Assembly: GCA_046539225.1 (NCBI GenBank)
Contig: JBKHHG010000003.1
Location: forward strand, 1 to 40,273
From: Candidatus Nanohaloarchaea archaeon
Lineage (GTDB): Archaea > Nanohalarchaeota > Nanosalinia > Nanosalinales > Nanosalinaceae
Reading direction: 5' to 3'
DNA: 40,273 nt
The position numbers and the translations under genes are program-made. The notes under the pieces were generated by a model. It saw nothing but the letters and a program-made list of their open reading frames with translations, was not told where the DNA came from and made no database searches. This document shows positions 1 to 40,273 of the stretch, piece after piece (within the stretch, counting starts at the first letter, position 1; each line of letters starts with the position of its first letter).

Positions 1-42
1 CCTGGACAGGAAGGAACGGTTAACGCCAAGCTGATCGAATAA
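1..42 (+). CDS. rps8e: 30S ribosomal protein S8e, C-terminal end (partial)
   Basis: Frame 1 reads PGQEGTVNAKLIE*, matching the conserved S8e C-terminus (SRPGQDGxVNAxL); followed by a T-rich tract. Confidence 0.8.
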   Translation, partial: PGQEGTVNAKLIE

Positions 43-82
43 TTTTATTCATATCCTTTTTTCTCTAATTTCTATCTTTTTG
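43..82 (+). terminator. Oligo-T archaeal terminator region after rps8e
   Basis: Several T runs directly after the TAA stop. Confidence 0.45.
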
Positions 83-129
83 AATGAAAATAAAGAGAAA
101 AATAGTCAGGCCTGGAAAATATCAGGCTT

Positions 130-234
130 TTAGGCCCTTCTGATACGGTTCAGCCATCGGGCTACAAGGCCCTTGTCACGGACTTCGACCGGGAGCTGGT
201 TTCCGGTATCGTCCACGAATTCGGCTTTCATCAT
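130..234 (-). CDS. Putative 34-aa small protein (not in ORF track)
   Basis: Translates to MMKAEFVDDTGNQLPVEVRDKGLVARWLNRIRRA*; TTTATAAA box at 255-262 lies about 21 nt upstream (leaderless geometry). Confidence 0.5.
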   Translation of the reverse strand: MMKAEFVDDTGNQLPVEVRDKGLVARWLNRIRRA

Positions 235-254
235 CCAAGCATTGGCCCGCTAAC

Positions 255-262
255 TTTATAAA
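255..262 (-). promoter_or_regulatory. TATA box for the 130-234 transcript
   Basis: TTTATAAA at archaeal promoter spacing from the ATG at 234. Confidence 0.5.
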
Positions 263-324
263 CCCTTGATCTGTAAAGGCCTCTAATCGTTTAGAATAGT
301 TTATGAAGGTTTCTCAGGTCTTTT

Positions 325-1401
325 TCAGATATGCCGGAGGTTAAGTACGAGTACGTCTTCATCCATCAGTTCATGGTTGAGGCCTACTTTCTGCTCCGGG
401 AACTTTGATGAAGGCCCGGAAACTTTCGCCTTCTTGAACCGGTCCAGCATGTCGCCGGGAAGCTCCTCAAGCGCTTCCTCGACAGTCGTTCCCTCTTCAA
501 GGATCAATGGATCGTCTCTGTCGGGCTCTTCTCCTTTCTCCTTCATGTAGACCCGTATAAGCCCCAGTCTTTCGAAGATCAAATCCTTCAGTTCGTCGAG
601 GCCTTTTTCTTCGTCCGCAGAGATCAGCAGATCGTAATCGCTGTAATCAGATCTGTCATCTATCAAATCAGCCTTGTTTACAACAGTTATGCCTGGAATA
701 TACTTCCTGTTATCCATTAAACCATCTATAAACCGGTCAAGACCTATTTCCTCTCTTATAACGACGTTGGCGTTTGTGTAACCGTTCTGCTTCATCAGCT
801 CCCTGATAGTATCTTCTTCGATCTCTAGTTCGACGGTCGAGCTGACTTTTATGCCGCCTCTGCCTTTCTTCTCGACTTTCATGTCTGGAGGCCTCTTGTT
901 CACCCTGATTCCGACGTTGTGGACCTCCTGTTTAATCTCTTCCTCTCTCATCTCCTCAGGATCGAGCATGAACAGCACGAGATCTGCGTTCCTGACCACG
1001 CTCAAAACCTGTTTTCCGCCGCCCCTGCCGTCTGCTGCTCCGCCTATCAGGCCTGGTACGTCCAGGATCTGGATGTTGGCGCCTTTGTGCTTCAGCATTC
1101 CAGGCTCGACATCCAGCGTGGTGAACTCATAGCTCCCGGTCTCGGATTCCGCGTTTGTAAGGGAGTTAAGCAGGGAGGACTTTCCCACGCTCGGGAAGCC
1201 TACCAGTGCGACGGTCGCGTCACCTTTCTTCTCGACTGCGTAACCTGAAGTGTCTCCGGTGCCTGAGGCCTTCTTCTGCTTTTCCTCCTCAAGCTCTGCG
1301 ATCCGAGACTTCAGCCGGGCGCGCTCCTTTTCTGTGGCCTTGTTGACAGGAGTCTTCTCAAGTTTCTCCCTGACGCTCTGGATTTTATCTTCAATTCCCA
1401 T
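325..1401 (-). CDS. drg: DRG/Rbg1-family (OBG-like) GTPase with TGS domain
   Basis: GFPSVGKS, YEFTTL, DVPG and NKAD G-motifs; N-terminal TPxNKATE; C-terminal QKVGLNHEL.DED. Confidence 0.93.
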   Translation of the reverse strand: MGIEDKIQSVREKLEKTPVNKATEKERARLKSRIAELEEEKQKKASGTGDTSGYAVEKKGDATVALVGFPSVGKSSLLNSLTNAESETGSYEFTTLDVEPGMLKHKGANIQILDVPGLIGGAADGRGGGKQVLSVVRNADLVLFMLDPEEMREEEIKQEVHNVGIRVNKRPPDMKVEKKGRGGIKVSSTVELEIEEDTIRELMKQNGYTNANVVIREEIGLDRFIDGLMDNRKYIPGITVVNKADLIDDRSDYSDYDLLISADEEKGLDELKDLIFERLGLIRVYMKEKGEEPDRDDPLILEEGTTVEEALEELPGDMLDRFKKAKVSGPSSKFPEQKVGLNHELMDEDVLVLNLRHI

Positions 1402-1501
1402 ACCTGAAATTTGATCGATGAGAATTATAATATGCGGCGATAGAATCAGCTACGCAAGATAAATAGAAAGAGATATGTACTGTTCCAGCCTGTAACTGTA
1501 T

Positions 1502-1798
1502 CTACTCTACCAGTTGAATCTCTCCGTCTCTGCCGATGTTGAGCTGGATGTCGTCGGCCCATTCCCGGACGTAGGCTCCTTCAATGTGGACTTCTGCGCC
1601 CTCTTCTATTGCGTCAATTTCTTCCTCCCACAGCGTCAGGTCGATCGAGCCCGTGTCATCTTCAAATACCACGGTTACGATTCTCTTCTGTCCGTACCGG
1701 GTGGAAACTGCTCGTGGGGTCGGAAGCTCCGCGATTTTTCCTGTGATTTCGACGTCATCTGCTTCAGGTGAAAGTTCCTCAACACTCATTTCAGGCAT
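1502..1798 (-). CDS. ssb: Single OB-fold single-stranded DNA-binding protein
   Basis: DDTGSIDLTLW and GAYVREW...QLNIGRDG OB-fold signatures. Confidence 0.85.
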   Translation of the reverse strand: MPEMSVEELSPEADDVEITGKIAELPTPRAVSTRYGQKRIVTVVFEDDTGSIDLTLWEEEIDAIEEGAEVHIEGAYVREWADDIQLNIGRDGEIQLVE

Positions 1799-1881
1799 TA
1801 TACCACTGTAGAATCCTCAACCGACGACACTTAAAAGCCTATCGATCAAGCTTCTAAAAACCGAGTACAAAGGCCTTATAC

Positions 1882-2769
1882 ATGGAATTACCGTGGAAAA
1901 ACCAGGAGCTCGAAGACAGGGTTGAACAGCTTGAGGCCTCGCTGAAAGAGAAAAAACAGGAGATAGAAAAGCTGGAGCAGATGCTTGAAGCCGAGGAGGA
2001 GAGAAGATCAGAGCTCGCACGTAAGAAACAGGACGCGGAGGAAAAACTGAACAGGCTTGAGGACAGACTGGAAGGCCTTGAAGACACCAGCGAGGAAGAG
2101 GAAAGTTCAGGCCTCGAATTCAATGATATCAGCTTTCAAAAGTTCAAGAGTTCTATAGAAAAACTGGAGAGCATCGACTCCCCTGAGAGAGACATGGTCT
2201 CCATCTATTCCCCTGGAAAAGTCTCCGGGCACAGCGATTTATCGGATATAAGGAACTCTCTGCCGGAAGAAGTTTTGACGCCTATGCTGAACGAGGAGAA
2301 AATCGCAGCTTTCTACGTTGAAGAGCTTGGACTCTTCTGCTTCAGGCTCAGGCCTTTCTTCCCCCAGAAAATCCATATTAGTGAAAAGTTCGATGTTGAA
2401 GGCCTGAAAGATTTTATCGAAGAGGATAAGCACTGGGCGCTGGTTTCACGGGGGGACTCCCGGATCTTCACCGAAAAGGACGGGGAGTTCGAGGAGGTCG
2501 AGAGGATCAATGACCGGGTGAACCGTCAGCACGGTAAAGGAGGTTTTTCGCAGGGAAGATTTGAGAGGAAGCGGGATGAACAGGTGGAGCAGCACCTGCA
2601 GAAGCTTGGGGAAAAGCTTGAAGGCCTTGAAAACCTTTACATTCTGGGCGATAAAGCGCTTTCCAAGGAGCTTCCCGGTACTTATCTCGGAGGCTTCGAT
2701 CCGAACAGTTCCCCGCTGCAAAACTTTTACAGGCCTCGCAGCTTAAAAAAATCTGGTTTGACTGGGTAA
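1882..2769 (+). CDS. Archaeal Vms1/ANKZF1-like (VLRF1) release-factor family protein with N-terminal coiled coil
   Basis: HGKGGFSQGRFERKR catalytic loop typical of archaeal VLRF1. Confidence 0.82.
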   Translation: MELPWKNQELEDRVEQLEASLKEKKQEIEKLEQMLEAEEERRSELARKKQDAEEKLNRLEDRLEGLEDTSEEEESSGLEFNDISFQKFKSSIEKLESIDSPERDMVSIYSPGKVSGHSDLSDIRNSLPEEVLTPMLNEEKIAAFYVEELGLFCFRLRPFFPQKIHISEKFDVEGLKDFIEEDKHWALVSRGDSRIFTEKDGEFEEVERINDRVNRQHGKGGFSQGRFERKRDEQVEQHLQKLGEKLEGLENLYILGDKALSKELPGTYLGGFDPNSSPLQNFYRPRSLKKSGLTG

Positions 2770-2772
2770 GTT

Positions 2773-3453
2773 ATGACCGAGGAAAAGATCCGGGAGATCA
2801 ATCAAAAGCTGAAGGATTACTACGGCGAACCTGAGAAGCCGAGCGATCAGTCGGGAATCGATTATCTTGTGGAGACGATTCTCTCACAGAACACCAACGA
2901 CATCAACAGGGACAAGGCCTTCTCCCGGTTGAAGAAGAAGTATGGAGATGACTGGAGGAAAGTCGAGGAAGCGGACCTTGAAGAGTTAACCGATACTATC
3001 AGGGTGGCAGGTCTGGGCCCGACAAAGGCCGAGAGGATCCAGGAGGCTTTGAGAATCATCCGGGAGTACTCCAATGAGACCTCAAAACAGGGAGAGTACT
3101 CGATCAGGTTCATCGATGACATGAGTATTGAGGAGGGAAAGAACTGGTTGACGGATATACCGGGTATAGGCCCTAAAACCGCGGCCATCATACTGTGTTT
3201 CCATTTTGGAAAGCCGGTGATCCCTGTTGATACTCATGTCCACCGTGTCTCGAAACGGCTGGGCCTGGTTCCTGAAGAGGCCTCGAGAACAAGGACTCAC
3301 GAAGTTCTGGAGGAAAAGGTGCCTGACGAGTTAAAGTACGAGTTTCACCGTTTGCTGATCCAGCACGGTAGAGAGATCTGCACCGCCAGAAATCCTTCAT
3401 GCTGTGAAGGGCCTTTAGCGGATTTATGTAAGATGTGTGAAGAAAAAGGGTAG
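2773..3453 (+). CDS. nth: Endonuclease III (HhH-GPD DNA glycosylase)
   Basis: ILSQNT, IPGIGPKTA HhH, VDTHVHRV and a C-terminal Cys cluster. Confidence 0.92.
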   Translation: MTEEKIREINQKLKDYYGEPEKPSDQSGIDYLVETILSQNTNDINRDKAFSRLKKKYGDDWRKVEEADLEELTDTIRVAGLGPTKAERIQEALRIIREYSNETSKQGEYSIRFIDDMSIEEGKNWLTDIPGIGPKTAAIILCFHFGKPVIPVDTHVHRVSKRLGLVPEEASRTRTHEVLEEKVPDELKYEFHRLLIQHGREICTARNPSCCEGPLADLCKMCEEKG

Positions 3454-3465
3454 ATATGTAGGCCT

Positions 3466-3690
3466 TTACTCGAGCTCGTCGTCAAGGTCTTCCAGGCCTT
3501 CTGCAGCCTCTGCCTGTTGCTGCTGCATCTCTTCTACGATGTCCTGAGCTGTCTCGTTGATATCTTCCTGATCGACGATTCCTTCCTCCTGAAGAACGCT
3601 CATAAGCGCCTGTACTGTTAGTTCGAGATTACCTAGCTTCTGCTGCATGATCTGCATGAACTGCTGCTGATCCATACCTTCTTGTGGCAT
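3466..3690 (-). CDS. Small acidic Gln-rich hypothetical protein
   Basis: 74 aa, genome-typical acidic composition, GGTGA SD-like motif upstream. Confidence 0.7.
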   Translation of the reverse strand: MPQEGMDQQQFMQIMQQKLGNLELTVQALMSVLQEEGIVDQEDINETAQDIVEEMQQQQAEAAEGLEDLDDELE

Positions 3691-3745
3691 AAAGTTTGAT
3701 TCACCTAAAAGACTCCTTACCTCATGACTCTTATAAAACAGGGAT

Positions 3746-4141
3746 TCAAACCGGGTTTCTTGCGCCGCAGGCCTGGCATTTCAGCATTTCGACGCCTTTC
3801 TCCTTCACAAGCTTGGTATCAGGCCTCCCGCATTCCGGGCAGAATACGTAGTCGTCAGCGTAGGCCTCTACACGGGCCCGGATCTTTCCACGCCTGAACT
3901 CTCCGTTGAGAAAGAGTTCATCACCCTCTATATGTCCAGCAGTCCCTAACTCATTTTGAATATACTTTGAGAGATGTTTCTCGTCCCTGTTGAACTTCTC
4001 CACGAACTCCTTGAAGTTTTCAAGCACAGTGTTCGACCCGTCTTTCCGGGTCTCAACGCCCGGCATCTCGAAACGGCTCTCGTTTTCAAGGTCTTCCGGG
4101 ACTTCTTCCTGTCCTTTCTCAAGCATATCTTCGTAATCCAT
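3746..4141 (-). CDS. eif2b: Translation initiation factor aIF-2 beta subunit
   Basis: ELGTAG, CPECGRPDTKL and CQACGA zinc ribbon. Confidence 0.95.
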   Translation of the reverse strand: MDYEDMLEKGQEEVPEDLENESRFEMPGVETRKDGSNTVLENFKEFVEKFNRDEKHLSKYIQNELGTAGHIEGDELFLNGEFRRGKIRARVEAYADDYVFCPECGRPDTKLVKEKGVEMLKCQACGARNPV

Positions 4142-4156
4142 AGTTTGTTCAGGCCT

Positions 4157-4903
4157 CTAAAGCTTCTTAATCTTGCCTGGTTTGGGTTCGTAGCAGGTTC
4201 CTTCAGAGAGCAGCGAGTTAACCGTGTCCTCTAAAAGGTCTTCAGGTTCGTCTATCTCTTCAAGTATATCCGAGTAGTCAGCTCCTTCCCCATCATCCAG
4301 GTCCTGGACTGCGTCAAGCACTTCTCTCTCAATGTTTTCCATGTCTTCCTCTGACTCTGCCGAGGAAAAGTTCGCGTTGAAGCTTTGAAGCAGTGCGTCG
4401 ACCTCGTTCTCGTTGAGTTGGCCGGCCATCTCCTTCTCTATCTCGTCGCTGGACTTGCCTGACTCCTTCAGCTGTTTGACGGTCCCTCTTACCTGGTCCC
4501 ATTCCTCTTTTCTCTTCGCAAGCCTTAACTGATGCAACATCTCTTTCTCGGGCTCAACCTGTTTAAGCACTTCTCCATCAAGATAGATCTGGCCCTGGTA
4601 CTCCCTGACCTTTCCAACGACTTCAATCACCTGGCCTATCTCGAAGTCCTCCATGATCTCCAGCTCGGAGAAAAACTTGATCTGTGTGGTATCGTTTCCA
4701 TCGTCCAGGGTCAGCGAACCATAGGTCTCATCATCGTTCACAAACCTGTCGACTACGGTGCCTACAGCCCTTGCACGTGAAATCCGTCTGCCGCTTGGAA
4801 GCAGTAGAAAGTTGGGCTCAAAGCCTTCTCTCTGAAAGTATTTACCGGAGTTAAGCTGTTGAAAGTCCACAAGTTTGGCGGTCTGCCTTTTCTGCTGGGC
4901 CAT
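4157..4903 (-). CDS. RPA32-like OB-fold plus winged-helix protein
   Basis: OB-fold (LTLDDG...VEVVGKVREY) and C-terminal wHTH ending LLSEGTCYEPKPG. Confidence 0.75.
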   Translation of the reverse strand: MAQQKRQTAKLVDFQQLNSGKYFQREGFEPNFLLLPSGRRISRARAVGTVVDRFVNDDETYGSLTLDDGNDTTQIKFFSELEIMEDFEIGQVIEVVGKVREYQGQIYLDGEVLKQVEPEKEMLHQLRLAKRKEEWDQVRGTVKQLKESGKSSDEIEKEMAGQLNENEVDALLQSFNANFSSAESEEDMENIEREVLDAVQDLDDGEGADYSDILEEIDEPEDLLEDTVNSLLSEGTCYEPKPGKIKKL

Positions 4904-4951
4904 ATCAAAAACCCCGAAGTTGACTCTTAAGAATGTAACCTCACAGAGACA

Positions 4952-6934
4952 TCAGATCTTCTGGATAAAGCCCTGCTTTGGCTCGAAGAGCTCGCCCTCA
5001 CGCTTCAACTTGTCGATAACCTCCTCGGTCTTCTCAGGATCGATCCCCTCATCCGAGGCCTCCTCTATAACCTGCTCGATCTCAGCCGAACCATCATCAT
5101 CCGCAAGCCCATCGATCAAATGCTTGATTGTCTGAATCCTGTTTCTCTGACTCGAGGAAACACCTGACTCGATCCTATCGATATCGAAGTCCCCGGTCTC
5201 GGGATCCATTCCTACCTGCTCCAAAGTATACTTCAGGATATCGATCGCACGCTGGGCATCATCCTCCTCGACCTCTTCCTTCAGCTGGGCGCGTGCAGAG
5301 GCCTCAGCTATCCTCACCATAGCCTCAAGCTGACGCGCAGTAATCGGAACAGAATCCTCATCTCCAGAAGATCTCATGGAGACGTAAAACTCCTGTATGA
5401 GTTCTGAGGCCTCAGAAGTCAGCTCAGGCCTAACGTTTTTCTTGGCGTACGCAACGTACCTTCTCAGCTGCTCCTGCGAGATCTCCGCGTCCTGATCCTC
5501 GGGGTCACGGTGGTTTGCCAGGATCTGGTTGGCCAGCTTGTTATCACGGTCCTCATCCGGCTCATCCTTGACAGGGAAGATAAAGTCGAATCTGGAAAGC
5601 AGCGTATCCCCGATATTAATCTGCTCCGGTATCGGCTCGTAGGGATCGAAACGCCCCAGTTTTGGGTTACCTGCCGCAAGGATCGAGGTCTGTGCGTTAA
5701 GAGTTGCCTGGATATTCGCCTTCGAAACGGAGATCTGCTGCTGCTCCATCGCCTCGTGTAAGGAGGAGCGGTCCTCCTGACTCATCTTGTCGATCTCGTC
5801 GATAGCCGCCATTCCTTTATGCGCTAACACGACCGCTCCAGCCTCCAAACTGAATTCTCCGGTGGATTCTTCTTTGACAACTGACGCAGTCAAACCTGCT
5901 CCTGTCGATGATTTTCCGACCACGTACCGGCCTTTAGGCGCGAGCTCGCCGGCAAACTTCAATAGCTGGGATTTACCTGTGCCGGGTTCACCGATTAAAA
6001 GTATGTGAAGGTCTCCCCTCGACTTTACGCCGTCTTCACGCGTCTTCCTGACCCCGCCAAATAACTGGAGGGCGATAGCCTCTTTAATCCTGTCGTGGCC
6101 GAAGATACTGGGCGCGATCGACTCAATAATTCTCTCAAATATGTTTTCGTCAGAGGCCATCTCCTTGATCTCCTCGATTTCTTCGTCATCAAGCTCCAGC
6201 TGCTCAAACTCCTGCTGCCTGGGCTCGACGTTGTTCGCCTCCATGTAGATATCGAACTTCTTCGAGTTCTTCTTGATAGGCCTCTCCCGGACTATACCCG
6301 TTACTTCGACGACGTTCCCCGGAACCACTTTCTTCTGGAACTCCGGATCCACGAGATCGCCTTCAAGCCTTACCGATAGAGACGAAGGCTGCTCCGAACC
6401 TTCACGCGATTCAGGGTTCTCCTCCAGCGTCACGATCTGCGTATCAGTCATCTTCTTCTCGATAGGCTCAAACCTTTTGGACCCGCAGTCGCACTTGTAC
6501 GGGCTTTTCAGCTGGGAGGACTCCTGCTCCTTCTCATAACGGTCGCCGCACTGGGTGCACTCGAATATCGCCGACATGACCTCCGGCTTCACCTGTGATG
6601 CCCTCTTGATCATTCCCTCCACCGGTACAAAAGTAGTGATATGCTCGGATCTAAGGTTCTTCAAAAGTATCTGGTCATCCTCCGGCATGTTCCGGACCCT
6701 GACATTCAGCTCCTGCTTCAGAAGATCGACCGCCACCACGCCTTCGCTCGCCGCATCCAAGGCCTTTTCAGGCTCTTCTTTCAGAAAATCCGTCAACTCA
6801 GGGTTAAACATATCCAGGTCTTCAAACTCAACCACCACAGACTCCTTACCCTTCTTATCGGCGTCAAGAACCTCCTCTTCATACCTCTCAGTGAAAAACT
6901 CCTCGAACTCTGTCACCGCCTCCCCGTAATCCAT
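4952..6934 (-). CDS. mcm: MCM replicative helicase (no intein)
   Basis: C4 zinc finger, GEPGTGKSQLL Walker A, IDEIDKM Walker B, SRFD arginine finger, C-terminal wHTH. Confidence 0.97.
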   Translation of the reverse strand: MDYGEAVTEFEEFFTERYEEEVLDADKKGKESVVVEFEDLDMFNPELTDFLKEEPEKALDAASEGVVAVDLLKQELNVRVRNMPEDDQILLKNLRSEHITTFVPVEGMIKRASQVKPEVMSAIFECTQCGDRYEKEQESSQLKSPYKCDCGSKRFEPIEKKMTDTQIVTLEENPESREGSEQPSSLSVRLEGDLVDPEFQKKVVPGNVVEVTGIVRERPIKKNSKKFDIYMEANNVEPRQQEFEQLELDDEEIEEIKEMASDENIFERIIESIAPSIFGHDRIKEAIALQLFGGVRKTREDGVKSRGDLHILLIGEPGTGKSQLLKFAGELAPKGRYVVGKSSTGAGLTASVVKEESTGEFSLEAGAVVLAHKGMAAIDEIDKMSQEDRSSLHEAMEQQQISVSKANIQATLNAQTSILAAGNPKLGRFDPYEPIPEQINIGDTLLSRFDFIFPVKDEPDEDRDNKLANQILANHRDPEDQDAEISQEQLRRYVAYAKKNVRPELTSEASELIQEFYVSMRSSGDEDSVPITARQLEAMVRIAEASARAQLKEEVEEDDAQRAIDILKYTLEQVGMDPETGDFDIDRIESGVSSSQRNRIQTIKHLIDGLADDDGSAEIEQVIEEASDEGIDPEKTEEVIDKLKREGELFEPKQGFIQKI

Positions 6935-6985
6935 ACACAGTAATTAGTAGGAAAATAACAAAAAACAATCCAACACAATTAACAT

Positions 6986-7285
6986 ATGACAGAAAAACTC
7001 GGCCCGGAAAAGATCGACGAAAAAATGGAAGGCCTCGAAATCTGGGGAGTCCAGGACGAAAAACTTGTTACACGTATCGAATTCGAGGACTACAGAGAGG
7101 CCTGCTTTTTCGCCAACACGGTCTTCTCTCTATCGGAGAAAGAGTTCCATCATCCCGAGGTAAAGGTGGAGTACGGAGCGGTAGAGATCGACCTCTGGTC
7201 TCACGACGTTGAAGGCCTGACCCAGAAAGACTTTGAACTTACCGAAAAGATCGAAGAAGCCGCCAAAGACATTGACTGGAGATAA
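6986..7285 (+). CDS. Pterin-4-alpha-carbinolamine dehydratase family protein
   Basis: HHP motif and W.HD..GLT..DF. Confidence 0.88.
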   Translation: MTEKLGPEKIDEKMEGLEIWGVQDEKLVTRIEFEDYREACFFANTVFSLSEKEFHHPEVKVEYGAVEIDLWSHDVEGLTQKDFELTEKIEEAAKDIDWR

Positions 7286-7289
7286 AAAA

Positions 7290-7748
7290 ATGAGAGTCCC
7301 TGAAGAAGCAGATAGAGACTTTGTAGCCGGGGCTTTCATCATCAAAGACCGCAAGATCCTTTTCCTGAAACACAAGAAGTACGGTGTCTGGCTACAGCCC
7401 GGCGGCCATATCGAAGAAAGGGAGACTCCTGATGAAGCCGCTAAACGCGAAACACGTGAAGAGACAGGCCTTGAAGTGGAGATACTGGACGATTTCAGGC
7501 CTGAAACTTCTTTCCAAAACAAGAGCGAGGACCTGCCCCAGCCATTCAACATTAACCTGCATAGAATCGAGGAAGGACACTGGCACCTTGACTTTCAGTA
7601 CCTGGCGAGGCCTGTAGATGAGACCAGCGAGAAAGAATACTCCGACAAAGATATGAAATGGTTCTCCAAGAAAGAGTTAGAAGATGAAGACCTGAATATA
7701 CCGGAAAACGCCAGAAAAACTGCTTTGAAGGCCTTGAAAGAGAATTAG
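7290..7748 (+). CDS. Nudix hydrolase A (start moved to ATG 7290)
   Basis: WLQPGGHIE...EAAKRETREETGL Nudix box; H.H.DF.Y motif. Confidence 0.9.
   Translation: MRVPEEADRDFVAGAFIIKDRKILFLKHKKYGVWLQPGGHIEERETPDEAAKRETREETGLEVEILDDFRPETSFQNKSEDLPQPFNINLHRIEEGHWHLDFQYLARPVDETSEKEYSDKDMKWFSKKELEDEDLNIPENARKTALKALKEN
7449..7477 (+). repeat. 29-bp exact inverted repeat, copy 1
   Basis: GAAACACGTGAAGAGACAGGCCTTGAAGT; its reverse complement is at 8001-8029. Confidence 0.9.
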
Positions 7749-8197
7749 AAATCCAGTTCCCTTATATTTGCTTTTTGCGATCCGTATCTTTCAAAATCGT
7801 CGATTACTTTCACCAGGTCAAATCTAAGCTCCAGGTTCTTCAACTCTTCTCTTGAGAAGTACTTCGCATCTATGATCTCTCCTTCTTCTACCTCTCCGAG
7901 TTCTCCGCCGATTTCAGAGGCCTCAAAGAATATGTTTACATTCTTTTTATCGGTTCTCTCGGCCTCTCTGACATAGATGCCGATCAGGCCTTCTACCTCT
8001 ACTTCAAGGCCTGTCTCTTCACGTGTTTCTCTTACAGCGGCTTCTCGAATGGTTTCCTCATGGTCTTCCTCGGCCTTGCTAAATCCTCCTGAAGGCAGGT
8101 TCCATTTACCTTTGACGTGTTCTTTGGCTTCCTGTATAAGAAGGTATTCTCCTTCAGAGTTCGTTAAAAGACATCCTGCACCGAGGTTTACTGACAT
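7745..8197 (-). CDS. Nudix hydrolase B (start moved to ATG 8197)
   Basis: WNLPSGG...EAAVRETREETGL Nudix box; the longer ORF start overlaps tbp. Confidence 0.88.
   Translation of the reverse strand: MSVNLGAGCLLTNSEGEYLLIQEAKEHVKGKWNLPSGGFSKAEEDHEETIREAAVRETREETGLEVEVEGLIGIYVREAERTDKKNVNIFFEASEIGGELGEVEEGEIIDAKYFSREELKNLELRFDLVKVIDDFERYGSQKANIRELDF
8001..8029 (-). repeat. 29-bp exact inverted repeat, copy 2
   Basis: ACTTCAAGGCCTGTCTCTTCACGTGTTTC is the reverse complement of 7449-7477. Confidence 0.9.
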
Positions 8198-32166: not shown

Positions 32167-32244
32167 AATACTGGAATTGGTCGCGACTCTACTTAAAAAT
32201 AGGCAGGGGTATTAAATCTTCAGATAGACCATTTCTCTGTAGAG

Positions 32245-32685
32245 ATGAAGCTGCTGCTCAAGAGACGGCTCAACCCCTTCCTGCTGCTTACAACGCTGGT
32301 AGGCCTTTCCCTGCTCGTAGGCCTTTCAATAGTCTTTCAGACCCAGCTACAGGAGATAACAGATGAGAACCATGGCCTGAAGGAGAGACTCTCCGAGAAA
32401 AACTCCGAACTCAACACCACAAGAAAGGAACTTAACGCATCCAGAGACAGGGAAAAACAGTTTCAGGACCAGATCAACGAGCTAAAAACAGAACTGGAGA
32501 ACCAGACAGAGTCAGAGCAAGGCCTCCAACAGGAGATAGAAAGAATGGAGAACCGGACACAGCAGCTTCAAAACGAGAACAATGACTACGCCGAAACAGT
32601 TGAAAACCTGAAAGACGACATCCAGTACATCTGCGAGGACGCCGACGGCCTGGACAGCTTTTCACAGAGCCTATGCGAGGACTGA
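32245..32685 (+). CDS. Membrane-anchored coiled-coil protein
   Basis: One N-terminal TM, about 100 aa heptad-rich region, C-terminal Cys pair. Confidence 0.75.
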   Translation: MKLLLKRRLNPFLLLTTLVGLSLLVGLSIVFQTQLQEITDENHGLKERLSEKNSELNTTRKELNASRDREKQFQDQINELKTELENQTESEQGLQQEIERMENRTQQLQNENNDYAETVENLKDDIQYICEDADGLDSFSQSLCED

Positions 32686-32692
32686 AGCACAG

Positions 32693-33412
32693 ATGAGAGT
32701 TGAAGACCTGTTCAAACGGCTTAAAAGAGAGTACTTCAAGATCAAGCTTCTGCAAAGTTTTCTCGACACTCTTATCATCGTCCTACTTTTGAACCTCGGA
32801 GCCATAATCATCAATTTCAGTTACGACCTGAGAATGCTCGCCGTTATAGGCCTGGCGTTTTTCCTAAGCAGGTTCTACTACCTTTCACGAAACTACTCGG
32901 TCGAAATATACGAAAACCAGAACCAAAGCCTTGAAGAGCTTTTGAGAACCGCGAGAGACAACCTTGACAGGAGGGACGAGATCACACAGGCCCTGTTCGA
33001 GGATGTGATGGATAGAGCGAGGAAGATGAGCTCTGAAACGATTATACCTTCTGATAGAGTGTTTCAGAAGCTTTTCCTGATCGGAGGCCTTGCGATACTG
33101 ACCGCGGTCTCAGGCCTTGTGGCCCCGACAGTCAGCTTTGAAGCCCCGGATTTCCAGGATTCTCTACCCGGCCCGGGTATAGGCGAAGAGGAAAAGGCGA
33201 ACTCCTCGGAGATAATGGGAGATTCGATCGATATCGACACCACCGGCACCGACGTCAACATTTCAGTTGAGGGCGAGGGCGAAAGCTTTGAGGAAGGCTT
33301 CAGGAAAGGCCTTCAGGACGAGGAGCTGATGTTTGAGGCCTCTGACGACAGGCTTGACAGAGACCTGGAGCTGGCGAAGAGGTACAGCGTTGCAATCAGA
33401 GGCCTCGAATAA
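32693..33412 (+). CDS. Membrane protein associated with the MoxR operon
   Basis: Three hydrophobic segments, E..N..L.E.LRTARDN motif and acidic tail. Confidence 0.75.
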   Translation: MRVEDLFKRLKREYFKIKLLQSFLDTLIIVLLLNLGAIIINFSYDLRMLAVIGLAFFLSRFYYLSRNYSVEIYENQNQSLEELLRTARDNLDRRDEITQALFEDVMDRARKMSSETIIPSDRVFQKLFLIGGLAILTAVSGLVAPTVSFEAPDFQDSLPGPGIGEEEKANSSEIMGDSIDIDTTGTDVNISVEGEGESFEEGFRKGLQDEELMFEASDDRLDRDLELAKRYSVAIRGLE

Positions 33413-33444
33413 ATTATTAATGACTGGCTTCTCCATTCTCTTGT

Positions 33445-34410
33445 ATGAAGCTCTCCGGTAAAAAGGACTCTGTGAAGTACGAGAAAGTGAATGAAAAACT
33501 CGCCGAAATCAAGAACGAGGTAGGAAAGGTAATGGTCGGTCAGGAAGAAGTGATCGACCAGGTGCTGACATCGATCCTCTGCGACGGCAACATACTTCTC
33601 GAGTCAAACCCAGGAATGGGAAAGACCAAGATGGCCTCAACAATTTCAAAGACTTTAGGCCTCGAGTTCTCCAGGATACAGTCCACTCCCGACCTTATGC
33701 CCTCCGACATTACAGGCACACATATCGTCGACGAATCCTCAGGGAAGGCAGAGTTTATCTTCCAGCAGGGACCGATCTTCGCCAACATGGTGCTCGCGGA
33801 TGAGATCAACAGGGCCACGCCAAAAACACAGTCGGCACTGCTGGAAGCAATGCAGGAGAAACAGGTAACCGTCGGCAACAACTCCTACAGCCTTGACAAA
33901 CCCTTCTTCCTGATCGCAACCCAGAACCCTCTCGAACAGGAAGGAACCTATCCACTACCGGAGGCTCAGAGAGACCGTTTCATGATGAAAGTAAAGCTGG
34001 ACTTTCCCAGCGGAGACGAAGAGAGAAAAATAGTCGAAAGGTTTACCGAGGAGCTCAACTACGAACCCGAACTCGAGAAAGTCGTTACAAAGAAAGGCCT
34101 CGTAAAGCTCCAGAAGTTCACACGGGAAGTACCGATCGCCGACGACATCCTGAAAGACGCGGTGAAGATAATAAGGGAGACAAGAGACAAGGAAAACCTG
34201 GAGTACGGCGCATCACCTAGGGCCTCGATAAACCTTGTGCTGGCGGCGAAAGGCCGGGCTCTCGTCGAAAACAGAAACCATGTATCAATGAAAGACGTGA
34301 AGAGAATGGCGAAACCAGTGCTCAGGCACAGAATCGGTTTAAGCTTTGCAGCGGAGAAGAAAGGCCTGAACCCTGACGACGTAATAGACGAGATAGTGGA
34401 GGAGCTATGA
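33445..34410 (+). CDS. moxR: MoxR-family AAA+ ATPase
   Basis: PGMGKT, RIQ.TPDLMPSDITG, ADEINRA.PK.QSALLEAMQE, ATQNP.E.EGTYPLPEAQ.DRF and GASPRA. Confidence 0.96.
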   Translation: MKLSGKKDSVKYEKVNEKLAEIKNEVGKVMVGQEEVIDQVLTSILCDGNILLESNPGMGKTKMASTISKTLGLEFSRIQSTPDLMPSDITGTHIVDESSGKAEFIFQQGPIFANMVLADEINRATPKTQSALLEAMQEKQVTVGNNSYSLDKPFFLIATQNPLEQEGTYPLPEAQRDRFMMKVKLDFPSGDEERKIVERFTEELNYEPELEKVVTKKGLVKLQKFTREVPIADDILKDAVKIIRETRDKENLEYGASPRASINLVLAAKGRALVENRNHVSMKDVKRMAKPVLRHRIGLSFAAEKKGLNPDDVIDEIVEEL

Positions 34411-35264
34411 TAGAGCCAGAGTTCCTCAAAAACCTTCAAAGGTTCCACCTCGCCCTGAAAAAGAACAGCGGCGAAGTACAGCAAGGAGAACAGGACTCAG
34501 AGTTCTCAGGCCATGGAATGATCTTCAAAGACCATAAAGAATACACGCCGGGCGACGACATCAGAAGAATCGACTGGAAGGCCTATGCACGGACAAAAGA
34601 CTTCTACGTAAAGCGTTTCGATGAGGAGAAAAACTTTACCGTCCACATCATCGTAGACCGGAGCAGCTCCATGGACTTCGGAGAAGAATCAAAGTACGAC
34701 TTTGCCTCGAAGATAGGCCTCGCCCTGGCTTACATGACCAACAGGACGAACGACAGGTTCCGTTTCTCCGTGTTTTCAGAGACTTTAACCGATCTTACCT
34801 CGGCAAGAAGAAATGGAAACCTTGTAAACCTTTTGGACACGTTGAACGAGCTCCGTAAAACCCCTGAAAGCCGTGTAGAGAAATGTATTACAGAGTACAG
34901 CTCGAGGATTGAGAACAGATCGGTAGTGGTGATAATATCCGATCTCCTGACCGATATAGACCAGATAAGGTCAGGCCTCCAGTCACTGGAGGAAAGCGAT
35001 GTCGTGCTTGTCAACGTCTTCGACGAGGAAGAGCTCGATCCATCGATGAAAGGAGACACTATCCTCGAAGACCCTGAGTCCAGCTCCACCCTGAGAGCCT
35101 ACGTCTCAAGAAAGACAAAGAACGAGTACAAGTCCAAGCTACAGAAACATGTAGAGGAGATAGAGGAGCTCTGCGACATGAACAACGCCAGGTACATACG
35201 GGCCTCAACCGGGGAAGACTTCTTCGAGTCTTTTATAGATATCTGGGAATCCGTAAACCAGTGA
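34407..35264 (+). CDS. DUF58 family protein
   Basis: F.DH.EY.PGDDIR.IDW.AYAR, D.S.SM and ISD; ATGA-coupled to moxR. Confidence 0.93.
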   Translation: MIEPEFLKNLQRFHLALKKNSGEVQQGEQDSEFSGHGMIFKDHKEYTPGDDIRRIDWKAYARTKDFYVKRFDEEKNFTVHIIVDRSSSMDFGEESKYDFASKIGLALAYMTNRTNDRFRFSVFSETLTDLTSARRNGNLVNLLDTLNELRKTPESRVEKCITEYSSRIENRSVVVIISDLLTDIDQIRSGLQSLEESDVVLVNVFDEEELDPSMKGDTILEDPESSSTLRAYVSRKTKNEYKSKLQKHVEEIEELCDMNNARYIRASTGEDFFESFIDIWESVNQ

Positions 35265-35971
35265 CAGAGTTCAACATTATAGATTCAAAACCTGCAGTCT
35301 ATTTCCCAGAGAAAGGCCTCATCGCAGTATCCGACCTGCATCTCGGGCTGGAAGGAAGCATGACATCCAGAGGCCACTACATACCCGAGTTCCAGCTCGA
35401 AGAGCTTAAAGAAGAGCTAAACTTCCTGAAAAAAGAGACCGATGCGGAGAGAATCGTGGTCAACGGAGACCTCAAAAACCAGTACTCCACAAGCTACACA
35501 GAGAAAAACGAGATAGAGGAACTGCTGCAGCACCTCAAAGAAACCTTCAAAGACGTTATAATAGTAAAAGGCAACCACGACACGTTCATAGAAGACACTG
35601 TAAAAGACAAAGGCCTCAGAACCGTCGAATCATACAGCGAAGACGGACTCCTCTTCGTTCACGGCCACGAAAAAGTCGAGGAAGAGTTTGAAACCCTGGT
35701 GATCGGCCACGAACATCCTGCGCTTGCCCTCACCGATGAAATAGGAGTAACGGAGAAAGTACCCTGCCTCCTCCACGGAAACACGGAAAGAGGCGAGATA
35801 ATAGTCTTGCCGGCTTTCTCAAAAATTTCCAGGGGCTCTGAAGTCAACAGAATGAATAAAAACGAGCTTTTATCCCCGATTCTAAGAGATGTAGGCCTGA
35901 AAGACTTTGAGGCCTACGCGGTCTCCCGTGAAGGCGGGGTCTACGACTTTGGAAAAGTTCAGAATCTGTAA
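35261..35971 (+). CDS. Calcineurin-like metallophosphoesterase
   Basis: SDLHLG, NGD, GNHD, HGH, GHEHP and LPAFS. Confidence 0.92.
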   Translation: MTEFNIIDSKPAVYFPEKGLIAVSDLHLGLEGSMTSRGHYIPEFQLEELKEELNFLKKETDAERIVVNGDLKNQYSTSYTEKNEIEELLQHLKETFKDVIIVKGNHDTFIEDTVKDKGLRTVESYSEDGLLFVHGHEKVEEEFETLVIGHEHPALALTDEIGVTEKVPCLLHGNTERGEIIVLPAFSKISRGSEVNRMNKNELLSPILRDVGLKDFEAYAVSREGGVYDFGKVQNL

Positions 35972-37134
35972 AGCTTTACAGAGTACGCAAGCATCACCAG
36001 AGCGATTACACCCGCTGAAGCAAAGCTTGCCGAAAGGCTGAAGGCCGATGCGACCGCTCCCGCCATCGTTGGCCCCACAAGGGAGCCTATATGTTTGAAA
36101 GTCTCCATGAAACCGACGAGTTCGCTTTCTACCTCCTCCGGCGCTCTACTATCGAAAATTGCATGGATTACAGGCGATAAACCGTTTGTCAAAGCTGCTG
36201 CGACGAAGAAGAATGCTCCCAGCATCAATGTGCTTTCCAGGAAGTACATTCCGAACAGTACAGGTGCGAGACCCATGGAAAACACGATAAGGCCTTTTTT
36301 CTTTCCTATTCTGTCCGCGAAGTCACCAAACAGTATCTGGAAGGCCTTAGGTAACGCAGCTAAACCGAAGATTATACCCATTTCGACGTAGGAGGCTCCT
36401 GCCTCTTCAAGGGCGAGAGGCACCGCCAGCCAGAAGAATGAGAAGATTATGGAGTAGAGGAAGACCATTATGTACGCGGGTCTAACCCGGCTCCAGTTTT
36501 CTTTCAGGTGGTGGAAGTCGTTGCTGTATGTCTTTGACTTGAAGAGTTTCTCGAAGTTAAGGACTCGAGAGCCTTTGGACGAAACCCCTATATAGGATAT
36601 GAAGATGCCCAGTGAGATGATCGCGGTCAGCACCCATAGCCCGAGCACCAGCGAGAAGCCCTGGTTCAGGATAAGGTATCCTCCTATTATAGGCCCGATG
36701 ATGGCTGCAAGGTTGGCGCCAAGCAAAAAGACTGACAGAGACTTTGACTCAGTGGATTCTTCAGAGCTTTTCATGGACAGGCTCCAGCCGCTGTTCCAGA
36801 TCAGGCTCTTCGTCACTCCCTCGAAAACCTTTCCGGCGGTTAGAAACAGTGGGGTAGCGATTAGATAGGCGAGCGCAGGCAGAGCCCCGACCAAAAGGCC
36901 TGTGAAGAATACGAACTTTTCGCCAACCCTCTGCACATAGTTGCTGACCGGTATGTCAAGCAGGACAGCGACAGCAGAAGGTAGAGACGTTAATAGGCCT
37001 ATCAGGAAAACCATGTCGATATGCATCTTGAAGTAGACCGGCAAGAACTGCCAGACCATGTTGCGGCCCAGCCAGGCAAAAAGCATTACTGCGGAAAGAT
37101 ACTTTGTAATCCTTGGAATCTCCTGTAAAGCCAT
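35959..37134 (-). CDS. MFS transporter
   Basis: About 12 TMs; GDFADRIGKK motif A. Confidence 0.88.
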   Translation of the reverse strand: MALQEIPRITKYLSAVMLFAWLGRNMVWQFLPVYFKMHIDMVFLIGLLTSLPSAVAVLLDIPVSNYVQRVGEKFVFFTGLLVGALPALAYLIATPLFLTAGKVFEGVTKSLIWNSGWSLSMKSSEESTESKSLSVFLLGANLAAIIGPIIGGYLILNQGFSLVLGLWVLTAIISLGIFISYIGVSSKGSRVLNFEKLFKSKTYSNDFHHLKENWSRVRPAYIMVFLYSIIFSFFWLAVPLALEEAGASYVEMGIIFGLAALPKAFQILFGDFADRIGKKKGLIVFSMGLAPVLFGMYFLESTLMLGAFFFVAAALTNGLSPVIHAIFDSRAPEEVESELVGFMETFKHIGSLVGPTMAGAVASAFSLSASFASAGVIALVMLAYSVKLYRF

Positions 37135-37355
37135 CAGTGGGTCACGAAGCCTGGTTCGTCGTCTTCTTCCTCTTCTTCCTGCTCCTGCTTTTTATGCTTC
37201 TCTATATACTCCTGCTTGGCCTCCTCCTTTAATTTCTCAAAACGTTTACGCGCAAGATCCTCGTCTTCGGTACCTGCTTCCTCTTTCTTCAGCTTCTCAT
37301 ACCTGTCAGAGGAGTCATCCCCGTCAGAACTCGCGGCCTCAAGAAACTTGTTCAC
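37134..37355 (-). CDS. Small charged hypothetical protein (probable GTG start at 37355)
   Basis: GTGA overlap with the upstream stop and TGATG overlap with the MFS start. Confidence 0.65.
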   Translation of the reverse strand: MNKFLEAASSDGDDSSDRYEKLKKEEAGTEDEDLARKRFEKLKEEAKQEYIEKHKKQEQEEEEEDDEPGFVTH

Positions 37356-37567
37356 TCCTTGCCACCTATGAAAGGCAGAAACCTGCCCCATTTCACGGAT
37401 TTTTCAACAGCTTGCGCCGACTCCTCAACCGACTTGACGGATTCCTCGGCCTCCTGTACGAAAGAGTTCAGGTTTCTCAGGAGGAACAGGAGATACATTC
37501 CGAGGGCCACAGCGGTAACCTTGACCGCCACATCCAGAAAAGAGTTAAGCGCGGCGTATTCAATCAT
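37352..37567 (-). CDS. Small single-TM protein with short coiled coil
   Basis: Hydrophobic helix followed by an EES-rich heptad; first gene of a coupled 3-gene unit. Confidence 0.65.
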   Translation of the reverse strand: MIEYAALNSFLDVAVKVTAVALGMYLLFLLRNLNSFVQEAEESVKSVEESAQAVEKSVKWGRFLPFIGGKE

Positions 37568-37653
37568 AACAGTTATTTGACAGGCCTCTGCTTTATATTT
37601 TTCCGTATGTCAAACAATTATAAGCCTGTAACCCGAATTTTCTACGTGATAAC

Positions 37654-37995
37654 ATGGTTGAAGTACCTGAAGACACCGAAATAGAAGACCTTCCCTTCAC
37701 GCACGCCCGGATCAAAAGAATGATCAGAGAAGAAGCAGCGGACGGACAGTACGTACGTTCAAACGTCTACTACGGACTGAACCTTTTACTGGGCGAAATC
37801 GCGGAGGAAATCATCGAAAACATGATGGAGACAGACGCGGCCTACGTCGAAAAACACCACCTGGATCACGCGGCCAGAAAGTACGAGAAAGTAGAGAACA
37901 TCATAAAAGAAAAGGAACGGGTCGCAAGAAAACTCGAGGCCTTGAGCGCCGACGTCGAAAAACTCTCCCGGGAAGTAGAGCAGAGCGACGTCTAA
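37654..37995 (+). CDS. Histone-fold protein with C-terminal coiled coil
   Basis: LPF.HARIKRMIRE...V...long helix...V...HL..AA histone-fold pattern plus a ~35 aa heptad tail. Confidence 0.65.
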   Translation: MVEVPEDTEIEDLPFTHARIKRMIREEAADGQYVRSNVYYGLNLLLGEIAEEIIENMMETDAAYVEKHHLDHAARKYEKVENIIKEKERVARKLEALSADVEKLSREVEQSDV

Positions 37996-38058
37996 AAAAA
38001 CTTTTTTCTCTTAATTTTTCCCCTGTTATTTAAGCCTTATAACACCGTTATCTTTGTT

Positions 38059-38400
38059 ATGGATTTTGAGTCCGAGGCAATCGCTCAGGAATTTCTGCCC
38101 GCCGCAAGATCGCTTCTGGCAGAACAGCTTTCAGAAGAGTACGGCCTCTACCAGGAGGAAATCGCCGAGATCATGGGGATAACACAGGCCGCGGTCAGCC
38201 AGTACCTCAACAAGAAGAGAGCCAGCAAAAAACTTTTGAGAAAGATGAAAGACGACCCACAGATCATGCTCCTCCTGAACGAGGCAGCGGGAAACGCCGC
38301 CAGAGAAGAGGCCTACCTTGAAGAGTTCAGGCAGATACTTGAAACCGTCAAGGCCAAAGGCCTGATGAAGCAAAGTTTTGAAGACGTTGAAAAGCTCTGA
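38059..38400 (+). CDS. HTH transcriptional regulator
   Basis: E......LPA.R..LA..L...GL.QEEIA..MGITQAAVSQYL..KRA. Confidence 0.88.
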   Translation: MDFESEAIAQEFLPAARSLLAEQLSEEYGLYQEEIAEIMGITQAAVSQYLNKKRASKKLLRKMKDDPQIMLLLNEAAGNAAREEAYLEEFRQILETVKAKGLMKQSFEDVEKL

Positions 38401-40272
38401 CTACTTGAACTCGTACTCAACTTCATCCTCTTCCTCTCCGCCTCTCAGTTCCTCGATCTTCGACTTAAGTTTATCCACTAAGCCAGAATCCTCCGACTCG
38501 AAAGTATCGACGCCCTGATCGTTTCCGATATCAAGCTCGTACTCTGACAGGAACGAAAGATCGAACTCGTACTCATCACTGTAAACCACAAACCCGATTC
38601 CCCCCGCGATAATCAACAGGAAAAGGGCTGCGACAACCATTATCACCTTGTTCCTGTCATCGATACTCTGCTCTTTTTCAACAGTGCTGAAGGTTTCATC
38701 AGCAGCGTTAAACTCTTCATCGATACCTTCAAGAATGGAGTCAGCCCTGTAGTACTCTCCCTCGTCGACAGCCTCCCGTGCATCCTGGGCAGAAGACTCA
38801 AGGGTAGAGAAATCCTCATCCAACCTCTCCTTTCTCTCCTGCGAAAGCCCAGGCCTCAATGAATCAACCCGGGAACTCAGGTTTTCATAACTTCCCTCGT
38901 AATCCTCCAGATCCGACTCGATCTCACCCCGGGCCTCCTCATCAGCAGAGACAAGAACCGAGACAGTACCAGAGGCATCAACACTGCTCAAAGAAACATC
39001 GACCTCATACATCCCCAGATCATCATCCGTCGGCGAAAACTCGAGGTAGACCGACTCGGTCTCATTCGGCGGAATACTATCGAAAGAAACCGTTTCACCC
39101 AGTTCAGAGGCCTCAACATCGCCTCCAGGAATCAAGATCTTACCGGTATTCTCGATCTCCACTTCAAGGTTCTCAGTCGTTCCAGAAGTAACATTCAACT
39201 CGTCAGCAACGCTTAAAGAGGCCTCAGGCTCCTCATCAGGCCTGAAATCGAAGTCAAAGGACTCAGTGCTGCCCCACTTCCCAAAGTCGTCTTCAGCCCT
39301 CAAATAAAGTATGTTATCACCCTCATCGAGATCTGAAGTATCTGCCGTAAAGTTACCGTCAGAGACCTCAGTCCCATCACCTTCACCAGTATCCTCATCA
39401 AAGAAGTATTCCACGGTCTCAATTTCCGAAACAGCATCCAAGGCCTCATACTCGACATCAAAGTCATCGTTGAAAGTATCTAGACCTGTAGAAGTTTCTA
39501 AAGTTGAAATCGTAGGCGCGGACTCATCCAAACCATAGTCGTAAATGTCAGAACTCCAATCATTACCGGCCTCGTCCTCAAGCTCGACCTCGAACTCAAC
39601 ATCCTCGTCAAAGTAATCATCAGGGATTTCACAGGTAAACTCCTCATCCTCACCCTCTTCCAACTGGCCTAAATCAGCTGAATCCTCTTCATCACCTTCA
39701 ACAATACATAAGGCCTCAACACTGCTCTCATGATCCTCAGTCGCCTCAAAATCAACATCAATATCAAACTCATCCTCACCCTCAACATCGTGATCACCCT
39801 CCTCAGGATCCAGCTCGAAATTATCAGGATCAGGCTCAACAGTATCAACAACAAAATCCCAAGTACCTGACTCTTCATTACCGGCCTCATCGTAGGCCTC
39901 ATAATCAACATCGTACTCTCCGTCATCCAGATCATCAAAATCATCTGAGTCAATCTGAAGATCAACCGAGTCTTCATCTCCATCGTCCCATACATCTTCC
40001 TCTCCTTCAAAACTCAAAGTCGCGTTCTCAAGGCCTGAAATATCATCCTCAAAAGAGGCCTCAATATCAGGATCATCCTGATCAATCACTTCACCATCCT
40101 TAGGAGACTCCCCATCAACATCAGGATCCTGTGTATCAAGAGTCAAACCTTCAAGCTCCTCCGAATCAAGCTCATCATCACTATCGTTGTATGCAATTAC
40201 ATCAAAATCGTATTCTCCGTGTGTTCCACTGGCGTCATCATTTTTGCTGTAATCATAAGTGGCTTCGTCCTC
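38401..40272 (-). CDS. Very acidic cell-surface protein with Ig-like repeats, coiled-coil stalk and C-terminal TM (5' end outside window)
   Basis: Frame is open to the window edge; repeated DEAGN and D...P Ig-like signatures; TM VIMVVAALFLLIIAGGIGFVVY. Confidence 0.82.
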   Translation of the reverse strand, partial: EDEATYDYSKNDDASGTHGEYDFDVIAYNDSDDELDSEELEGLTLDTQDPDVDGESPKDGEVIDQDDPDIEASFEDDISGLENATLSFEGEEDVWDDGDEDSVDLQIDSDDFDDLDDGEYDVDYEAYDEAGNEESGTWDFVVDTVEPDPDNFELDPEEGDHDVEGEDEFDIDVDFEATEDHESSVEALCIVEGDEEDSADLGQLEEGEDEEFTCEIPDDYFDEDVEFEVELEDEAGNDWSSDIYDYGLDESAPTISTLETSTGLDTFNDDFDVEYEALDAVSEIETVEYFFDEDTGEGDGTEVSDGNFTADTSDLDEGDNILYLRAEDDFGKWGSTESFDFDFRPDEEPEASLSVADELNVTSGTTENLEVEIENTGKILIPGGDVEASELGETVSFDSIPPNETESVYLEFSPTDDDLGMYEVDVSLSSVDASGTVSVLVSADEEARGEIESDLEDYEGSYENLSSRVDSLRPGLSQERKERLDEDFSTLESSAQDAREAVDEGEYYRADSILEGIDEEFNAADETFSTVEKEQSIDDRNKVIMVVAALFLLIIAGGIGFVVYSDEYEFDLSFLSEYELDIGNDQGVDTFESEDSGLVDKLKSKIEELRGGEEEDEVEYEFK

Positions 40273-40273
40273 G

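Follow-up and report, generated by a model that had tools for sequence, protein, structure and literature searches.

AGGCCT is a real highly iterated palindrome (HIP)-like element in archaea, falling short of HIP membership with respect to a cognate methylase. The window analysed here, the first 40,273 nucleotides of contig JBKHHG010000003.1 from Candidatus Nanohaloarchaea archaeon, contained 189 copies of this hexamer against 11.9 ± 3.8 (maximum 23) in 100 dinucleotide-preserving shuffles. The genome from which the window derives (G000; 606,781 bases in 38 contigs, an assembly that is 82% complete) contained 2,850 copies, equivalent to 4.7 per kb. The explanation that we favor, at a little below an even chance, is that AGGCCT is recognized by a dimeric DNA-binding protein of high abundance.

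Abundance, frame independence and spacing of AGGCCT

The first-pass annotation of the window had listed 16 AGGCCT starts between positions 108 and 2915 and seven intergenic starts (108, 277, 1871, 22502, 22521, 23770 and 23780), all of which were exact. It had also described a similar density to the window end, which we found to be 9–16 sites per 3 kb throughout, and sites in all three codon phases of a single VLRF1-family gene, which has two, one and four sites in phases 0, 1 and 2, respectively.

Positions 108..40061, no strand: AGGCCT palindrome, 189 dispersed copies, about one per 213 bp, genic (three phases) and intergenic.
Positions 1882..2769, plus strand: VLRF1/baeRF-family release factor gene (Pfam PF18859/PF18854), seven sites, all three phases.

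Every one of the 38 contigs of G000 carried the element, at 1.7–5.8 per kb. It was over-represented 20-fold relative to an order-0 and 16-fold relative to an order-1 Markov expectation, which clears the HIP-type threshold of at least 15-fold. The next-ranked palindromic hexamer reached 2.5-fold, the remaining 15 NGGCCN words 0.3–1.6-fold, and the 18 one-off words of AGGCCT 0.7–1.6-fold. No iterated word of like strength was found in motif-poor loci or in the motif-poor genome G024, where the top word reached 1.7-fold.

Gene calls made in this analysis (712 genes, 89% coding) placed 2,474 copies in G000 genes, with 433, 917 and 1,124 in the three phases. Synonymous shuffling within genes gave 435 copies, and a null that kept the amino acids and drew each codon given the preceding codon gave 759. 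Intergenic DNA held 363 copies (5.2 per kb) versus 11 in shuffles, a 32-fold excess. Based on the excess over both nulls, the intergenic excess and the occupancy of all frames, codon choice alone is insufficient, as the first-pass annotation had argued. That annotation had also staked its claim on the excess surviving an amino-acid- and dicodon-preserving null and on AGGCCT standing above all other NGGCCN words, and both proved to be so. Nothing, except that 87% of sites lie in genes, spoke for a codon, dicodon or peptide bias or for an assembly artefact, and this explanation is refuted: contigs from two public runs of one study, one run being possibly the source, independently covered 30 of 30 bins of window positions 1–20000, and the DNA is therefore no assembly artefact. 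No RNA data set was listed as carrying the sequence.

Coding opportunities for AGGCCT in G000 were filled in 79% of cases overall (range 76–85%), and this use of 0.79, compared to about 0.1 in motif-poor loci, corresponds to an odds shift of roughly 30-fold. In addition, AGGCCT shifts the G000 proteome. Peptides compatible with the word were enriched (RP 1.64-fold, [EKQ]A[FSYCW] 2.41-fold and GL 1.46-fold), as opposed to 0.76–1.01-fold for the reversed peptides and 0.84-, 1.02- and 1.01-fold for the same peptides in motif-poor G024. One example lies within the window.

Positions 7213..7218, plus strand: AGGCCT encoding Glu76-Gly77-Leu78 of the pterin-4a-carbinolamine dehydratase gene (6986–7285).

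Residue 78 of the dehydratase was Leu, with the site, in eight of eight motif-rich loci, and Leu in two of 21 motif-poor loci, in which it was mostly Ile or Val; Leu78 is a site-driven amino-acid change. The occupancy of three phases needs changes at six positions, including transversions, and an inference from these needed changes excludes a Vsr-type repair bias at a single position as the cause.

Sites also avoided one another at short range. In G000, 167 neighbor distances were below 30 bp versus 302 expected. With three genomes pooled, opportunity use was 0.33–0.38 (expected about 0.7, with amino-acid context controlled) when another site was 6–11 bp off, 0.57–0.67 at 12–26 bp, and normal at 33 bp or more. 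Use by nearest-site distance was flat over 40–400 bp. The exclusion was clear in G000 and G005, and the data for G022 were too thin to see it. This mutual exclusion over about 30 bp suggests a protein footprint. It also fits the chromosome organization that the first-pass annotation had offered as one possible driver. Regarding kilobase periodicity, a simple Fourier test on G005 gave peaks at 349 kb (9.2 times the variance) and 52 kb (8.5 times), borderline for about 520 frequencies, and no significant 10–90 kb periodicity was seen in one complete genome by this test, which is simpler than the published damped-sine method.

Positions 22502..22526, no strand: intergenic AGGCCT pair, 19 bp apart; close pairs are scarce genome-wide.
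Positions 23770..23785, no strand: intergenic AGGCCT pair, 10 bp apart, between convergent TFB and Trm1 genes.
Positions 26171..27388, minus strand: two-domain nucleotidyltransferase-domain gene, no site in 1,218 bp, normal GC (51%).

The last of these genes lies in the longest site-free gap of the window (26077–27390). Intergenic flanks leaned to A at +3 (47% versus 35–36% after control words), and conserved genes were poorer in sites (3.0 versus 5.2 per kb). At the 752 opportunities shared by G000 and G005, both genomes left the opportunity unused in 76 cases versus 62–64 expected (p 0.001–0.004), with fourfold positions of the two near saturation (0.33 versus 0.26 at random). Positions thus appear to be conserved beyond context in this one genome pair, modestly and weakly. 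A promoter role was rejected: sites keep clear of the TATA region and of the start codon, and an approximately twofold rise between -22 and -15 was shared by two genomes and absent from G022. None of the 40 listed strain differences (of 474) lay in or created AGGCCT, a comparison without power as 1.2 were expected.

Distribution across the phylum and loss

Twelve of 70 genomes of the phylum contained 2.0–4.7 AGGCCT per kb, G003 contained 0.95, and the other 57 contained at most about 0.7, with the sizes of genomes other than the fetched ones rounded for these densities. The named genomes nearest to that of the window are nanohaloarchaeal. The 12 motif-rich genomes come from four genera, all in one family, and in genus g2 two of six genomes are motif-rich. 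In a tree of 48 rows and 3,576 columns all rich rows fell into one 24-row clade (SH-aLRT 97), where they were mixed with poor rows, and the 20-row sister clade had no rich row. Complete genomes also carry the element (4.3, 4.4 and 2.1 per kb in the loci examined, L069, L077 and L071).

Locus L064, from the window's own clade, still has the amino-acid contexts at 1.39-fold and uses only 16% of them. Motif-poor members of g2 share nine of 45 site-derived contexts with their rich relative, compared to one of 66 in other poor loci. Based on these relic and shared contexts, one gain followed by repeated losses seems likelier, the numbers being small.

A region of G022 (G022:C1:200000-230000; L255-L256) contained 12, 4 and 1 AGGCCT per 10 kb, with five in 20 kb. 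This island holds an MCM-like frame of 1,117 residues and is probably a recently integrated element. MCM frames of 1,019–1,719 residues elsewhere (L053; G016, G014, G026, G038 and G039) matched the query piecewise, consistent with inteins. A virus scan gave at least 122 matches, and among the 81 loci of at least 3 kb examined none had a halophile-type proteome. Three Acidilobaceae loci (L119-L121) had 1.7–1.8 AGGCCT per kb at 60% GC, where it did not rank among the top words under an order-2 model. A record titled Colwellia polaris (L087) branched among the nanohaloarchaea in the tree (100% support) and is probably mislabelled.

A dimeric DNA-binding protein and its rivals

If AGGCCT is bound by a dimeric protein, an abundant, symmetric (homodimeric) factor covering about 20–30 bp would prefer the word and act chromosome-wide. 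Each occupied site would be advantageous, either via selection or via protection of the site-bearing allele in repair, and single-base steps at any of the six positions would accumulate until nearly all tolerated positions were filled, with a second site beneath the same footprint contributing little. The short-range exclusion, with independence beyond 33 bp, argues for such a binder. In addition, specificity is graded by lineage, being strict in G000, looser in G005 (GGGCCT 2.5-fold) and looser in G022 (all AGGCCN words 2.4–3.0-fold, in 320 kb of that genome), which suggests an affinity profile.

Our candidate for the binder, proposed tentatively from sequence comparisons and structural models, is a winged-helix protein encoded outside the window.

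G000:C17:2843-3319 (L263:1498-1974), plus strand: winged-helix protein, 158 residues.

It was flagged among 464 orthologues of G000, G005 and G024 for its high conservation and because the G000 and G005 copies resemble each other more than they do the G024 copy, and it has polB, histone, exonuclease, grpE and dnaK genes in its neighborhood. The protein was found in 45 of the 50 genomes of the family, with 72–94% identity to the query, was not found in five genomes of other families, and outside its archaeal family has only distant DPANN-type homologues of 21–35% identity. No Pfam or NCBIfam family was found for it. Within its archaeal family its conservation equals that of TBP and TFB. The predicted structure is a winged helix (pLDDT 74) with a helix at residues 90–105 and wing strands at 108–113 and 126–131. 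The best fold match was TFE-alpha of P. furiosus (Z 9.6, rmsd 3.1, 101 of 102 residues aligned); Foldseek gave no match at E 0.001 and weak LmrR matches at E 0.008. A homodimer was predicted with a score of 0.43 versus 0.01 for the best control (pLDDT 79; runs agreeing on at least 70% of contacts), the mark of 0.42 being one attained by 20 of 30 solved homodimers and one of 23 single chains. In the predicted dimer the chains pair via the C-terminal helix and most of helix 90–105 is left free.

Residue 91, in the first turn of the presumed recognition helix, was Leu in nine of ten motif-rich genomes and in one of 34 motif-poor genomes, the other 33 having Lys. The split also occurs within a genus, as G005 and G060 are unlike their congeners G059, G061 and G063, and distant homologues have Leu, Tyr or Ile. 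Of 373 aligned positions, residue 91 was the only one at which G000 and G005 had both changed from Gly-Lys to Gly-Leu. From these alignments, residue 91 appears linked to the motif, whether it causes it, is co-adapted to it or is a passenger. It is conceivable, if doubtful, that the Lys/Leu switch, located where the recognition helix begins, makes the winged-helix dimer an AGGCCT-specific chromosomal protein. The genome would then fill with sites to roughly one per 200 bp, with codons and amino acids altered along the way, the switch codon itself among them, and sites would be lost again upon reversion of, or damage to, the protein.

A number of observations weigh against the dimeric binder, the candidate or the switch. 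A short repair patch would yield an identical 30-bp exclusion. The full gene-content contrast was made against one motif-poor genome, G024, a weak control that has a GGCC restriction-modification methylase of its own. The candidate was chosen post hoc from the 464 orthologues in three genomes. Its dimer score is barely at the mark; solved PadR-like dimers exist, such that the pass may reflect likeness to them; and its Z score is close to the range usual for unrelated winged helices. The protein could instead be a TFE-like monomer on RNA polymerase. All nine Leu91 codons of the rich genomes lie within an AGGCCT, the sole site in the gene, and among 4,095 control columns one also had a site-driven convergent substitution (a conservative one, Ile/Val to Leu), and Leu91 may therefore be a consequence of the motif. 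G010 is motif-rich (4.0 per kb) and yet has Lys91, and Leu91 occurs without a site in G003 (0.95 per kb) and in motif-poor G016. The G003 protein has also lost two basic residues (K59E and R66H). Lastly, the rich genomes are kin (four genera of one subclade), so that nine of ten overstates their independence.

The candidate resembles TFE-alpha and the PadR/LmrR proteins in its extended winged-helix fold and, in the model, its dimer through a C-terminal helix. It differs from TFE-alpha, which has a zinc ribbon after the winged helix according to an excerpt of PMC7289017, in having no cysteine and therefore no zinc ribbon, in its identity of 9–20%, and in being unmatched by PF02002. A search for canonical TFE-alpha with PF02002 gave only weak matches in three of five genomes, at another locus than the candidate. 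On the evidence of the model, the candidate could represent a missing basal or chromatin factor, whether or not it is linked to the motif.

Next after the dimeric binder we rank a neutral molecular drive, a lesser but serious possibility, in which a short-patch, site-dependent bias of repair or gene conversion fixes sites without benefit to the cell. For example, NucS/EndoMS would cut mismatches, recombination would follow, and a mark or bound factor would spare the site-bearing duplex. The exclusion would fit a repair patch of about 30 bp, 46 of the 50 family genomes have NucS, and sites fill unconstrained intergenic DNA and are fewer in conserved genes. The near absence of sites from the G022 island and the erosion in L064 once the force had stopped are also as expected of such a drive. 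However, the site-specific factor that it requires was not found, NucS residues do not track the motif (best 0.67 over 253 columns scanned, by which NucS was also rejected as a residue marker), and the concordance of near-saturated G000 and G005 hints at selection on particular sites.

A signal for the uptake or exchange of self-DNA, comparable to the uptake sequences known from Haemophilus and Neisseria and suggested for HIP1 by papers of 2024–2026, is improbable. The enrichment of motif-encoded peptides (1.5–2.4-fold) matches in size the doubling of tripeptides by uptake sequences in the cited portion of Findlay and Redfield 2009 (PMC2817400), and the G022 island is one site-poor island. However, DprA was found in one of 50 family genomes and in no motif-rich one (a search that did not extend to the ComEC, Ced and type IV secretion families), which also counts against the recombination option of the first-pass annotation. 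In addition, G000 genes without a G024 homologue were not site-poor (4.8 per kb).

The methyltransferase and repair option of that annotation fared worse. A ratchet of a cognate methylase with MutS/MutL, as modelled for cyanobacterial HIPs with saturation near one site per kb in the cited sections of Elhai 2015 (PMC4390886), is largely refuted and very unlikely here. The GGCC core is a common methylation target, and Eco57I-type matches occurred in five of five motif-rich genomes searched; however, these lay in frames of 166 to 1,239 residues, and that of G005, the sole one compared, was unmatched in G000. MutS was found in one of 50 family genomes. In a search of 41 genomes, seven of them motif-rich, a C5 methylase was found in one rich genome and an N4/N6 methylase over the cut-off in a different one, with neither type found in two single-contig motif-rich genomes. 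D12-type methylases were found in none of five rich genomes. A cognate methyltransferase common to motif-rich genomes was not found among the C5, N4/N6, D12 and Eco57I types (PF02384 was not searched as a family), and the kilobase-scale saturation predicted by the model was not seen. HaeIII-like GGCC methylases occur instead in G024 (97 AGGCCT sites) and G020 (73 sites), which are among the most motif-poor genomes, and GGCC is at 0.49-fold in G024, a depletion that is ordinary restriction avoidance. These C5 methylases (G024, L239:488-1501; G020, L001) are 87% identical to each other. G024 also avoids ACGT (0.24-fold). DndC-type phosphorothioation was rejected since the PAPS reductase matched in five of five rich genomes has a counterpart of 87% identity in a sulfation/glycan cluster of G024 (Dnd, Ssp and Dpd were not searched directly). 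A DNA modification of some other chemistry may be involved.

A positioning preference of histones (hypernucleosomes) is a comparably remote prospect, even though G000 has three archaeal histone genes and a 10-bp A/T oscillation extends to about 40 bp around sites, at synonymous positions too.

Positions 20790..21008, minus strand: archaeal histone gene, one of three in G000.

The oscillation also flanks one-off control words, in G024 included (amplitude 0.005–0.011, versus 0.008 in G000 and G005), and is therefore a general chromatin signal. Histones are not known to favor a single hexamer over its neighbors as sharply as 16-fold.

Other proteins were considered as drivers. The gene-content contrast of G000 and G005 with G024 yielded candidates that, where tested, failed upon wider sampling. 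DnaG was present in 44 of 70 genomes, many of them motif-poor, and its best residue score was 0.75 over 362 columns; a SWIM protein occurred in two of five genomes, one rich and one poor; and a 69-residue winged helix, MazG and a PolB2-like polymerase had matches in five of five. The contrast also yielded Cdc6-like, metallophosphoesterase, cupin, CopG-fusion and coiled-coil candidates. Within the window, an endonuclease III-type glycosylase was rejected.

Positions 2773..3453, plus strand: endonuclease III-type glycosylase, considered as driver and rejected.

Its residue 144, which is not part of the catalytic motifs, was Tyr in seven of ten rich versus none of 25 poor genomes, and the window's own copy has His.

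Several observations were made alongside these comparisons. Archaeal DnaG (G000:C4:31464-32564) is patchy in the phylum, being present in none of four genomes of genus g21 and none of eight of family f4. RadA (G000:C4:15346-16296) is 83% identical between G000 and G005 and 68–70% identical to the G024 and G022 proteins, whose N-terminus is of another type, common to both, possibly reflecting transfer or two RadA subtypes. CTAG is at 0.06-fold of the codon-null expectation in G000 (133 sites) compared to 0.58–0.99-fold in G005, G022 and G024, an avoidance that is separate and lineage-specific. A DUF6884 gene of the window (16856–17242) is present in G024 and not in G005.

Relation to known systems and significance

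AGGCCT resembles HIP1 (GCGATCGC) and the alternate HIPs, as described in the cited parts of Elhai 2015 (PMC4390886), Xu, Lawrence and Durand 2018 (PMC5861425) and Rodriguez-Cruz 2026 (PMC13756078), in being a palindrome in at least 15-fold excess, in coding and non-coding DNA and all frames, at more than one per gene. Patchy loss and some positional conservation between genomes are also shared, the concordance of AGGCCT being a weak form of the conservation reported in the cited text of PMC5861425. Unlike HIP1, the element is archaeal, is a hexamer at 2–4.7 per kb with an exclusion of about 30 bp, gave no significant 10–90 kb periodicity in the borderline test above, and occurs in a family with MutS and DprA each in a single genome and no cognate methyltransferase found by the searches above.

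Uptake sequences have an asymmetric core of 9–10 bp. Those of Pasteurellaceae and Neisseria share with AGGCCT an approximately twofold peptide enrichment, fewer sites in conserved genes and site-poor islands. AGGCCT differs in being a short palindrome, in the near absence of DprA, and in orphan genes of G000 that are not site-poor.

No published report of iterated AGGCCT in nanohaloarchaea was found in a search that left supplements, REBASE and subscription journals outside its scope. The string ‘GGCC’ did not occur in the main text of a nanohaloarchaeal methylome paper (PMC11001535), as far as the text seen extends, and the sole paper containing both AGGCCT and ‘nanohalo’ concerns, in its accessible part, Alcanivorax.

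For three decades HIP1 has lacked an explanation, and the leading models require a cognate methylase, MutS or transformation machinery. The archaeal case presents the HIP1 signature across the genome without those parts having been found, and a palindrome can therefore reach about 80% occupancy by another route. As AGGCCT switches on and off within genera, leaves relics and occurs in complete genomes, its cause is testable by genome comparison. The bias in codon use and the convergent amino-acid changes that arise from it matter for phylogenies of these archaea. Should the Lys/Leu switch prove true, archaea would have a nucleoid system of a new, sequence-specific kind, and for the first time a protein would be known to cause a highly iterated palindrome.

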